Shown here: positions 1 to 61,676 of the stretch, piece after piece
Numbering within the stretch: the stretch's first letter is position 1
Layout: each line of letters opens with the position of its first letter
Origin: Escherichia coli
GTDB taxonomy: Bacteria > Pseudomonadota > Gammaproteobacteria > Enterobacterales > Enterobacteriaceae
Direction: 5' to 3' (one strand)
DNA: 64,000 nt
Assembly: GCF_003334765.1 (NCBI RefSeq)
Contig: NZ_QOWT01000011.1
Program-made: the position numbers and the translations under genes
The notes under the pieces: generated by a model
Databases searched by the model: none
The model's input: only the letters and a program-made list of their open reading frames with translations
What the model was told of the DNA's origin: nothing

Positions 1-1103
<1,103 letters not shown>

Positions 1104-1150
1104 TAATTTCACTATTTTCAGAAGGATAATTAATCTTTCTACGTGCACGA

Positions 1151-1200
1151 ACGGTCCCCTCGCCCCTTTGGGGTGAGGGTTAGGGTGAGGGGAACCCGTT
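1151..1200. repeat. GC-rich imperfect palindromic element downstream of tldD
   Basis: acggtcccctcgcccctttggggtgagggttagggtgaggggaacccgtt; CCCCTCGCCCC / GGGTGAGGG arms; a second related copy lies at 19008-19043. Confidence 0.5.
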
Positions 1201-1236
1201 GGCACAGGTTTGTACAACGTAACAGTACAATATGAA

Positions 1237-2166
1237 TTACTTCTCTTTCCCGCGCCCGTGCATCTCCTGAAACAATTTACCGACCTCAACAAAATAATCC
1301 GTCAGCGAGTTGATCACGACCTGTACCTTCAGCGGCAGCTTATCTTTTTCGGTATATAACGCATAAACCGGGCGTGGATCTGACTGGTAACGCGGCAGCA
1401 GGATCTCCAGCTCCCCACGATTGATCTCGTTGATCACCCACATCAGCGGCACGTAGGCGATCCCGGCACCCGCCGTCAGCCAGCGCACCAGCGTCATCGG
1501 ATCATTAGTCACAAATCTTCCTTGTGGGATCAGGCGAGTCGAGATCCCTTCCGGTGCGATCAGTTCAAATTCATTGTCGGGCCGCACGCTGTATTCAAGC
1601 CATGAATGACTACTCAAATCGGCGGGTTTTTCCGGTATGCCGTATTGTGTGAGATAGCTTTTCGCGGCGCACACCACCATTGGCATCGCGCCCAGACGGC
1701 GGGAAAACAGGCTGGAATCCTGCAACGCGCCGACGCGGATCACCACATCCAGACCGTCGGCAATCAGGTCGGGGGCTGGAATTCCGGTAACCAGATTGAC
1801 GCTCAAACCTGGGTATTCTTTCAGCATTTTGGCTGTCAGCCCGGCGAGAACATTTTGTGCCATAGTTGAAGAACAGCCAATGCGTAGCGTCCCGATGGGG
1901 GTGTTATTGAAGGCATACAGTTGCTCATGAACATCCTGCACTTCATGAAGCATACGACGGCAGCCCTGGTAGTAAATTCTACCGGCTTCGGTCAGGCCAA
2001 TGCTGCGTGTGCTACGGTTTAACAGCTTTACCTGCAACTCATCTTCCAGTTTTGATACCGTCTGACTGATGGACGAAACGCTCATCTGTAGCTGTCTGGC
2101 GGCGGCGGTAAAAGAGCCAAATTCAACTACTTTGGCAAACACCGACATGCGTTTTAGTCGTTCCAT
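1237..2166 (-). CDS. aaeR: LysR-family transcriptional regulator AaeR
   Basis: 309 aa ORF with an N-terminal LysR helix-turn-helix region; divergent from aaeXAB. Confidence 0.9.
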   Translation of the reverse strand: MERLKRMSVFAKVVEFGSFTAAARQLQMSVSSISQTVSKLEDELQVKLLNRSTRSIGLTEAGRIYYQGCRRMLHEVQDVHEQLYAFNNTPIGTLRIGCSSTMAQNVLAGLTAKMLKEYPGLSVNLVTGIPAPDLIADGLDVVIRVGALQDSSLFSRRLGAMPMVVCAAKSYLTQYGIPEKPADLSSHSWLEYSVRPDNEFELIAPEGISTRLIPQGRFVTNDPMTLVRWLTAGAGIAYVPLMWVINEINRGELEILLPRYQSDPRPVYALYTEKDKLPLKVQVVINSLTDYFVEVGKLFQEMHGRGKEK

Positions 2167-28546: not shown

Positions 28547-29311
28547 TTATAAATACTGAACGCTGATAGTGACGTTACCATCCAGTTTGATCGTTTCATC
28601 AGAACCAAGAATAGTATTGTCATTTACCGCAGCATCAATCAGTAACGGGAAGGTGACCGCTGTAATGGCAACAGGTGTCAGTTCCCCTGTTTTTGCAACA
28701 GAATAACCGCGCTCGATTGCTGAGCAACTTGTCAGCGAGCAGAATGCGCCATTAGATGAGGCTTTCCATGTGGGGGTCGCTGCTGACCAGTGGTCAGTTT
28801 GAATCAGGTCGACAGGAATTTCACCTGTATCGTCCGCCGCGTGAATCCCACCATTAGACCTGTCAATACCAATGGATGCAGCGCCAATTTTTTGTCCATT
28901 AGGCGCAGAACCTAAACCAAAGGCGTTTTTCGTTCCCTTCATATCTACGAGAGTATCATAAGCTTTTTCAATATAGGATGTGTCGTTTAACGCTACAATG
29001 GTCGACTGACGGTTATCCTTGGAGGTTACAGCAATTAGCGTTGGTGCTGTGCAGGTTATATTTAATGTGCTGTTTTTGCGGCCCAGTTGAACCAGTTTAT
29101 TACTTTTACCGGTCGGATTCAGCGCACTGTTATGATGTTTCCCATAGTCAACAATGCCGCCGCCCGTAACAACTGGGGTACATGCACCAGGGGTATACTC
29201 GCCGATGATAGTTAATTCTGTATCAGTTGAATCTGTTGCCATGGCACTGAATGCTGCAACAGAAAGTGCTGCACAAATAGCAGCTGTTGTGAGGTTCTTT
29301 TTGAAAAACAT
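28547..29311 (-). CDS. gltF: Periplasmic protein GltF (fimbrial-like, DUF1120)
   Basis: 254 aa ORF with a signal peptide; downstream of gltD; related to yhcF. Confidence 0.85.
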   Translation of the reverse strand: MFFKKNLTTAAICAALSVAAFSAMATDSTDTELTIIGEYTPGACTPVVTGGGIVDYGKHHNSALNPTGKSNKLVQLGRKNSTLNITCTAPTLIAVTSKDNRQSTIVALNDTSYIEKAYDTLVDMKGTKNAFGLGSAPNGQKIGAASIGIDRSNGGIHAADDTGEIPVDLIQTDHWSAATPTWKASSNGAFCSLTSCSAIERGYSVAKTGELTPVAITAVTFPLLIDAAVNDNTILGSDETIKLDGNVTISVQYL

Positions 29312-29829
29312 ATGAACATATCCTTAATAACAAATTTATTTTTTAAAATAAAAAGCTGAAGCAGTATATATATCTGTTTGTGAATGTAAATAAATAACTC
29401 GTTCAGAAATAGCCAACTTGCTGGGATGTATTTATTTAATGAATTTTATAGTTACGATCATGTGAATAATAAGGTGCTGGTGAGGTGGTTTGTGGTGATA
29501 ATTATTCATTACATGAATGTTTGCGCTGAAAAATAGGAAAATATATAGATAATTAAGGATAATATATTGGTTTTTTATATTCGTATTTTGTATATTAATA
29601 TCGAGACAATTTACATGGAATGAAAAGACTGAATAGCTTGCAGAATCGGTATTGTCAGAGGTGTTAACAAGTAATTGAGACGGATTGTAAATGAGAAATT
29701 GCTTGATGTGCTTCACTCATCAGACTTGGTGAACAAAGCACAATTTATTGAAAATTATCCCTATTATAGGAAAGGTCAAACGCTCATGCCGCATTTGCCA
29801 GAAAACAACGCGCACTTCGTCAGTAATTT

Positions 29830-29857
29830 GATTCGCCAGACACAGTCTGGCGAATTC
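29830..29857. repeat. Single copy of the same dyad-symmetric unit 14 bp downstream of the gltD stop
   Basis: gattcgccagac-aca-gtctggcgaattc. Confidence 0.7.
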
Positions 29858-29870
29858 ATTGTTACCTCGC

Positions 29871-31301
<1,431 letters not shown>

Positions 31302-39798: not shown

Positions 39799-39910
39799 CC
39801 CCGGCTAGACCGGGGTGCGCGAATACTGCGCCAACACCAGGGAAATCTTGGCTGCGCCGTAAATTATTATGATGAGTTACAAGGGCACAGCACTGTTTTT
39901 CAGGCCGCAC
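39790..39910 (-). ncRNA. arcZ: Hfq-dependent small RNA ArcZ (SraH/RyhA), convergent with arcB
   Basis: The reverse complement of 39790-39910 matches my recollection of the 121 nt ArcZ sequence (5' GUGCGGCCUGAAAAACAGUGCUG ... CCCCGGUCUAGCCGGGGUCAUUUUUU 3'); its terminator hairpin and U-tract overlap the arcB stop codon at 39796-39798. Confidence 0.85.
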
Positions 39911-53524: not shown

Positions 53525-53683
53525 ATTTTTTCAGGCCGGATATGGCGTTAACCGCCTGTCCGGCAAACCTGCCTGCAAGTCGAGCCTTGTCTGATTTATC
53601 AGCGAGGCTTTTTGCTTATTTATGCCAGCGCAACTTTGCTCTAAGATGTTTCGCTGGTTTATTAACTGATGATTGAAGATCCC

Positions 53684-59929: not shown

Positions 59930-60027
<98 letters not shown>

Positions 60028-60060
60028 ATAAACAAAGCGCACTTTGTCAATAATCTGAAG

Positions 60061-61524: not shown

Positions 61525-61642
61525 AATCTCGCGCTAACAACCTGGAATCGAGCCGTCATACTACGGCGCAACGCCCTATAAAGTAAACGATGACCCTTCG
61601 GGAACTTCAGGGTAAAATGACTATCAAAATGTGAATTGTAGC

Positions 61643-61676
61643 TGACCTGGGACTTGTACCCGGGTCGGTATTTTTT
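61643..61676 (+). terminator. Leader terminator/attenuator upstream of greA (GraL-type short leader transcript region)
   Basis: Hairpin gacctgggacttgtacccgggtc followed by a T7 run, about 95 bp upstream of the greA ATG. Confidence 0.6.

Follow-up and report, generated by a model that had tools for sequence, protein, structure and literature searches.

The GC-rich imperfect palindrome between tldD and aaeR of Escherichia coli is, by its sequence, a catalogued copy of the BoxC/PIT/TMECO repeat family, no. 14 of the published list, and is real but ordinary. It lies in an analyzed stretch of 64,000 nucleotides (hereafter the window), and this exact copy is already known, having been listed between the 1990s and 2015. 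According to our explanation, which we hold with considerable confidence, BoxC copy no. 14 has no dedicated function here, is read through by tldD transcription and has a mainly mutational consequence. The parts of the element and the flanking genes, in window coordinates, are as follows:

1140-1209, plus strand: full BoxC repeat unit (nhmmer 60.6 bits, E = 4e-18, profile of 13 other K-12 copies)
1143-1156, plus strand: left outer flank GTGCACGAACGGTC, with gCAC...ACGGTC conserved in type-A copies
1157-1165, plus strand: block 1, the C block CCCTCGCCC, which fits the TMECO consensus
1166-1170, plus strand: loop 1, CTTTG, corresponding to N3-6 of the consensus
1171-1179, plus strand: block 2, GGGTGAGGG; the consensus and other E. 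coli alleles have GGGAGAGGG
1180-1182, plus strand: loop 2, TTA, which makes the element type A
1183-1192, plus strand: block 3, GGGTGAGGG plus G, partner of the C block in the predicted Watson-Crick fold
1192-1205, plus strand: right outer flank GAACCCGTTGGCAC, which pairs with the left flank in the predicted hairpin
12-1103, plus strand: 3' part of tldD, with its stop codon 53 nt before the core
1237-2166, minus strand: aaeR, convergent with tldD, with its stop codon 44 nt from the core

The stretch at 1151-1200 reads acggtcccctcgcccctttggggtgagggttagggtgaggggaacccgtt, exactly as quoted in the original prediction, which had also correctly placed it between the convergent genes tldD and aaeR. 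Its core at 1157-1192, CCCTCGCCCCTTTGGGGTGAGGGTTAGGGTGAGGGG, matches base for base the sequence CCCTCGCCCCTTTGGGGTGAGGGTTAGGGTGAGGGG that Table 1 of Holder et al. (2015, PMC4666352) gives for TMECO no. 14, at the same MG1655 position (3,390,529-3,390,494, minus strand). Window position p corresponds to MG1655 coordinate 3391686 - p, a conversion valid only to about p = 24,900. The entry is classified as "A mm", i.e., type A with one mismatched triplet, and in Supplementary Table S2 of that paper its neighbors are aaeR at 44 nt and tldD at 53 nt, just as in the window. The whole tldD-aaeR spacer is 100% identical to that of K-12 derivatives. Thus, the element and TMECO no. 14 agree in core, genome position, intergenic site, conserved flanks and membership of a multi-copy family, and the earlier guess of a "possibly box C-type" repeat was right. 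BoxC is the oldest name of the family; "PIT element" dates from a rediscovery and TMECO from a later renaming (PMC4666352). The literature on the family comprises Bergler 1992, Bachellier 1999, Hoyne and Maher 2000 and 2002, and Holder et al. 2015.

The published TMECO consensus is 5'-CCCTCNCCC N3-6 GGGNGAGGG N3 GGGNGAGGG-3' (PMC4666352), and window positions 1157-1191 match this three-block pattern, with CTTTG as loop 1 and TTA as loop 2. The internal duplication that had been noted is present as GGGTGAGGG at 1171-1179 and 1183-1191 and corresponds to the pair of G blocks that defines the family. Block 2 differs from the consensus GGGAGAGGG by one A-to-T change confined to the K-12-like allele, and because this allele has T where consensus block 2 has A, the two G blocks are identical here.

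Could such a palindrome have arisen by chance, outside any repeat family? The block GGGTGAGGG occurs three times in the window (1171-1179, 1183-1191 and 19030-19038) against 0.34 expected, a count reached in 1 of 100 shuffles, while the pattern CCCCTCGCCCC-N-GGGTGAGGG has one match against 0.00 expected over 100 shuffles. Together with the E-value of 4e-18 against the family profile, matches at approximately 18 places per genome and a published catalogue entry giving both sequence and position (PMC4666352), this refutes chance origin, to which we assign no probability at all.

General-purpose resources returned little at the locus. Rfam 15 had no covariance-model match to the element at the gathering score; at relaxed thresholds, the best match was an unrelated eukaryotic element (E = 0.46). 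No repeat is annotated at the locus in the MG1655 RefSeq record. The original prediction had paired the element with another at 19008; since this pair was absent from the top families of a generic repeat finder, the relation was tested with a family profile built from 13 copies at ten other MG1655 loci (published coordinates), leaving out the window copy. The profile (nhmmer) matched 1140-1209 with 60.6 bits and E = 4e-18. In the aligned K-12 copies, conservation reaches beyond the 36-nt core to a left motif gCAC-N4-6-ACGGTC and a right motif GAA[A/C]...GCAC. Consequently, of the extent first noted, the sequence at 1151-1200 stands and the boundaries do not, as the conserved flanks stretch the repeat unit by approximately 10 nt on each side, to about 1140-1209.

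Used as a BLAST query, the 50-nt element was found in 5,426 of 5,426 complete E. coli genomes, at a median of 18 places per genome (range 2-35). This genome-wide search, of the kind that the original prediction had proposed as a check, found further copies, and membership of an interspersed repeat family is borne out by copy number as well as by the profile. K-12 has about 20 such places, and Table 1 of PMC4666352 lists 23 MG1655 copies; overall, the family amounts to about 20 copies in an E. coli genome. The repeat unit of about 60-70 nt seen here agrees with the BoxC length of 56 bp that PMC2267715 credits, together with 32 copies, to Bachellier 1999. The K-12 copies that we fetched are all intergenic by annotation. 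One of them adjoins fabI, also called envM. The title of Bergler 1992, cited for BoxC in PMC4666352, names envM.

The original prediction of a long hairpin containing G:U pairs was supported by the folding check. The predicted RNA folding energies are -35.9 kcal/mol for the plus strand (z -2.8), G:U pairs included, and -32.2 kcal/mol for the minus strand (z -3.4); with DNA folding parameters, a long hairpin was again predicted on both strands. The predicted hairpin contains 12 flank-flank pairs, and among 11 type-A copies nine have predicted folds in which block 3 is the partner of the C block, continuous with the flank pairs, and block 2 is looped out. This predicted arrangement, in which the C block is joined to block 3 and the flanks, differs from the published triplex drawing, where block 1 is paired with block 2 and block 3 lies in the groove as the Hoogsteen strand (PMC4666352).

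A GC-rich stem-loop between convergent genes suggests a terminator, and this role had indeed been proposed for the element. A Rho-independent, possibly bidirectional, terminator of tldD and aaeR shares with the BoxC element a GC-rich stem-loop 3' of the stop codon, but the element lacks a U-tract, a mapped 3' end and published terminator activity. No T-run follows the hairpin on either strand (GGCACAGGTTTGTAC on plus, GTAGAAAGATTAAT on minus), and a terminator/promoter consensus scan of 1000-1400 gave no site in the spacer (1104-1236). According to Holder et al. (PMC4666352), Hoyne and Maher (2002) found no promoter or terminator activity of BoxC elements, no effect on RNA polymerase and no effect in vivo; a literature search for later functional work on BoxC or intrastrand triplexes turned up only reviews. 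For 3'-end mapping, a further proposed check, we consulted the Term-seq tables curated by Adams et al. (2021, PMC7815308). They list no 3' end in MG1655 3390300-3390699 and have no row naming tldD, these being thresholded lists from three growth conditions in which a weakly expressed tldD may yield no called 3' end. The same tables have no 3' end at the BoxC copies of adk, zntA and pstA-pstB or at the nanA-nanT hairpin described below. The table of Rho termination regions in that paper has an entry beyond the element:

Window ~1538 (MG1655 3390148), plus strand (the tldD strand, antisense to aaeR): peak of a Rho-dependent termination region (PMC7815308, Supplementary file 2)

Here reads fall from 148 to 26 in the absence of bicyclomycin (BCM), and the corresponding values in its presence are 231 and 243 (PMC7815308; Rho score 5.99, p = 5.5e-18). 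The peak lies approximately 350 nt downstream of the element, although the Rho score uses 800-nt windows and its position is imprecise. Within the limits of thresholded lists and 800-nt windows, these data indicate that transcription of tldD continues past the element until Rho terminates it ~350 nt further on. Taken with the missing T-run, the empty scan, the negative literature and the absence of a Term-seq 3' end, the BCM-sensitive termination downstream leaves scarcely any credence for the terminator reading, and the element should not be annotated as a terminator on the strength of its position.

Rho regions also occur approximately 150-200 nt past the BoxC copies after adk (MG1655 498060, plus) and hemB (MG1655 388499, minus) (PMC7815308). 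A rut-like role suggested by the Rho regions 150-350 nt past BoxC at tldD, adk and hemB was considered and set aside because there is no apparent excess: by a rough estimate, three of ~18 loci, in either orientation, have to be seen against ~900 listed Rho regions.

Another possibility is that the hairpin shields 3' ends, in that Rho-ended tldD and aaeR transcripts would be trimmed back by 3'-to-5' exonucleases as far as its foot and stabilized as at REP elements. The strong hairpins predicted on both strands, their retention in 11 of 11 alleles even where the middle block is gone, and Rho-dependent termination downstream on the tldD strand are what such protection would predict. The foot of the hairpin, however, has no curated 3' end in the three growth conditions, nor do the adk, zntA and pstA-pstB copies, and earlier studies saw no in vivo effect, although the assays listed in PMC4666352 do not include mRNA stability. 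On balance, we consider 3'-end protection unlikely; for the mRNA stabilizer named in the original prediction, we found no support.

REP/BIME elements, like BoxC, are short imperfect palindromes of high GC content, found between genes in multiple copies in E. coli and often after convergent genes. The sequences of the two are unrelated, and the tldD-aaeR element does not match the REP consensus (of the GCCGGATG...CATCCGGC type). REP elements are far more abundant than BoxC and have documented roles in mRNA stabilization, gyrase binding and IHF binding. For BoxC, no such roles are documented (PMC4666352). REP/BIME-like copies are present elsewhere in the window, at 53527-53565 and 59990-60028 (GCCGGAT..GCATCCGGC, also given as GCCGGAT...GCATCCGGCA).

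The spacer varies strongly among E. coli genomes. Identity to K-12 reaches 99% or more in only 957 of 5,422 genomes and lies in the 90-95% range in 2,756; for the nanA-nanT spacer, at a distance of 18 kb, 5,375 of 5,409 genomes reach the 99% level. Raised variability around TMECO loci has been reported independently (Holder et al., PMC4666352). Allele lengths were determined in 60 genomes taken at even steps down the identity ranking, and 11 alleles were read in sequence:

Spacer of 133 nt: 23 of 60 genomes (38%), full three-block length
Spacer of 126-127 nt: 29 of 60 genomes (48%)
Spacer of 121 nt: 7 of 60 genomes (12%)
Spacer interrupted by an insertion sequence: 1 of 60 genomes

All four full-length alleles read match the family consensus, and three of them have the exact consensus core, which most likely represents the ancestral form, as far as sequence comparison can tell. 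The seven shorter alleles all lack 6-7 or 12 nt in the core, depart from the consensus and retain three, two or one G-tracts. The G arm itself is a hexamer array, GGGTGA GGGTTA GGGTGA GGGG, and we infer stepwise slippage in this array, with contractions of 6 nt. All 11 alleles nevertheless fold to between -27.6 and -35.9 kcal/mol by means of the flanks, the C block and the last G block; this retention of the hairpin in 11 of 11 alleles could reflect selection rather than chance.

A different kind of change was observed in E. coli isolate 538 (NZ_OW967795.1, locus 300-454), where non-homologous sequence stands to the left of the last G block and the C block is lost (junction ...TGTGTATAAGAGACAG|CTGGGGTTAGGGGAACCCGTC). 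What is left, the right half, looks like the 121-nt allele. An IS4-like ISEc13 transposase CDS lies ~170 nt upstream, and no tldD is annotated within 400 nt upstream.

The allele series bears directly on whether the element is a selected non-B DNA structure, triplex or G-quadruplex, that locally modulates replication, recombination or expression. In vitro, the G-rich strand of near-identical oligonucleotides forms an intrastrand purine-motif triplex; the oligonucleotides used for CD and NMR have the consensus sequence, one base off this copy in block 2, and polymerase stops were also recorded in vitro (PMC4666352). Moreover, the G arm, GGGG-TGA-GGG-TTA-GGG-TGA-GGGG, is a canonical four-tract G-quadruplex motif with 3-nt loops, a motif that it has in common with the bacterial G4 motifs of E. 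coli yjbD and K. pneumoniae KP-PGQ-5 (PMC11170735). KP-PGQ-5 is identical to blocks 2-3 of type-B BoxC elements, related G arms have been measured as G4s (PMC11170735), and the three blocks are conserved across phyla. Unlike those motifs, the BoxC G arm stands beside a fully complementary C block, so hairpin formation competes with the G4, and with the C block present the hairpin is predicted even when G4 formation is allowed. The in vivo DMS footprinting of Holder et al. did not detect the triplex (PMC4666352). Finally, the four tracts are lost in most alleles: one or two G-tract hexamers are missing in ~60% of the sampled E. coli genomes, and in those genomes neither a three-block triplex nor a four-tract G4 is therefore possible. 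Such losses argue against selection for either structure at the tldD-aaeR locus, and we regard the non-B reading as highly improbable.

The second element, noted at 19008-19043, is flanked by nanA, whose stop is at about 19003, and by nanT, which starts at 19112. Does it, too, belong to the BoxC family? Its extent is as follows:

19005-19045, plus strand: two-block hairpin CCCCTCGCTCGCCCC TACC GGGTGAGGGG in the nanA-nanT spacer

The shared arms that had been claimed do exist, as CCCCTCGC..GCCCC and GGGTGAGGGG are found in both elements. In the nanA-nanT element, though, the C block has four extra bases (CCCCTCGC-TCGC-CCC) and there is a single G block, and its sequence does not match the three-block TMECO consensus. 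The sense strand is predicted to fold to -26.8 kcal/mol (z -5.1), and no T-run lies behind the hairpin. It is absent from nos. 1-21 of Table 1 in PMC4666352, which run past its position, and nanA/nanT were not found in the accessible part of the supplement of that paper. Against the family profile, it is the second-best match in the window (12.3 bits, E = 0.0048 for 64 kb), but the genome-scaled E-value of roughly 0.35 is not significant. The alignment has a 12-nt gap exactly at block 2 and loop 2, resembling the 121-nt tldD allele, and as a BLAST query the element gives a median of 1 place per genome versus 18 for the tldD element. Thus, of the single family originally proposed, the part concerning 1151-1200 holds as BoxC, while 19008-19043 is weakly supported (12.3 bits, departure from the consensus, median of one place). 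By its sequence, it appears to be a degenerate BoxC relative at best; it may be an old contracted BoxC relic, now fixed, or an unrelated hairpin inside the nan operon, and more evidence would be needed before it is counted as a BoxC copy. If the modeled hairpin forms, it could set differential stability of nanA versus nanT mRNA.

Beyond E. coli, a consensus scan of one genome per species gave at least 120 stretches, and those listed all come from three non-enteric genomes: Mitsuaria chitosanitabida with at least 150 three-block copies, a Methylomirabilota MAG with at least 13 and Candidatus Contendobacter with at least 3. Among the matches listed, the distant-phylum copies have the blocks CCCTC[T/G]CCC, GGGAGAGGG and GGGTGAGGG with lineage-specific loops and flanks (in Mitsuaria, the loop GCTTGC and the right flank tcttcgggct) and often occur as inverted pairs ~80-230 nt apart. 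According to a published statement, the motif is present in >260 genomes. The recurrence of the three blocks across phyla hints at some constraint or spreading mechanism, a point against a lack of function.

Similar sequences were found on 505 PLSDB records, including Klebsiella, Rhizobium, Sinorhizobium and Azospirillum. The PLSDB entries H113, H115 and H116 are E. coli "plasmids" of 4.8-4.9 Mb with 15-26 BoxC places; records of this size are evidently misfiled chromosomes, which makes the plasmid counts of the motif too high. A phage association was considered and rejected, the matches being limited to three records. Campylobacter phage A18a (MG065686.1, UNVERIFIED) holds E. coli pstA-pstB DNA, namely the pstA-pstB spacer with a REP and a BoxC copy, and A11a gave the same match. 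The A18a BoxC copy, together with about 25 nt of flanking sequence on either side, exactly matches one of our fetched sequences (L015), and the E. coli DNA in this record is probably assembly contamination. Real phages yielded essentially no BoxC matches.

Several other features were recorded in the window. Perfect or near-perfect local palindromes of 25-29 nt (e.g., AATTCGCCAGACATTGTCTGGCGAATT) occur at 22689-22717, 23454-23557 and 29828-29856: three in tandem inside the annotated yhcG (PDDEXK/DUF1016) ORF, another between nanQ and yhcG, and a further one between two ORFs that are probably gltF (28547-29311) and gltD (29871-31289). With a median of 2 places per genome, they are not a genome-wide repeat. 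The gene yhcE is intact (24757-25308, a 183-aa ORF), whereas MG1655 yhcE is split by IS5R (3365556-3366750); therefore, the window does not come from MG1655 itself, even though it carries the K-12 allele of the tldD-aaeR spacer. Two expected, ordinary structured RNAs matched Rfam above the gathering score:

39803-39910, minus strand: ArcZ sRNA
61555-61676, plus strand: greA leader

Taken together, the tldD-aaeR element is a non-coding intergenic unit of ~60-70 bp, an outer imperfect palindrome enclosing the C block CCCTCGCCC and then two G blocks GGGNGAGGG parted by TTA. It would have no dedicated cellular function at this locus, a reading that leans on absence of evidence for one; it is presumably transcribed through as part of the tldD 3' region, the transcript being ended by Rho ~350 nt on. 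Its main biological consequence would be mutational: the G-rich hexamer array appears to have been contracted by 6-nt steps in most E. coli lineages, so that the middle block goes and the long hairpin probably remains. The discovery value is small, as the family has been probed biophysically and functionally and no role was found; what is mildly new is only the allele series, in which the middle G block is lost with the hairpin retained. The locus is a clear natural case of hexamer-step G-tract contraction with three main allele sizes, and might be useful as a typing marker or for testing ideas on structure-driven slippage. A more general idea, which we put forward tentatively and consider rather unlikely, is that BoxC persists as the long hairpin made of the flanks, the C block and the last G block, and not as the three-block arrangement able to form a triplex or G4. 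If this were true family-wide, the constraint on BoxC, or its function, would lie in the hairpin, in RNA or as a DNA cruciform, and the triplex motif would be a transient, slippage-prone state of new copies.
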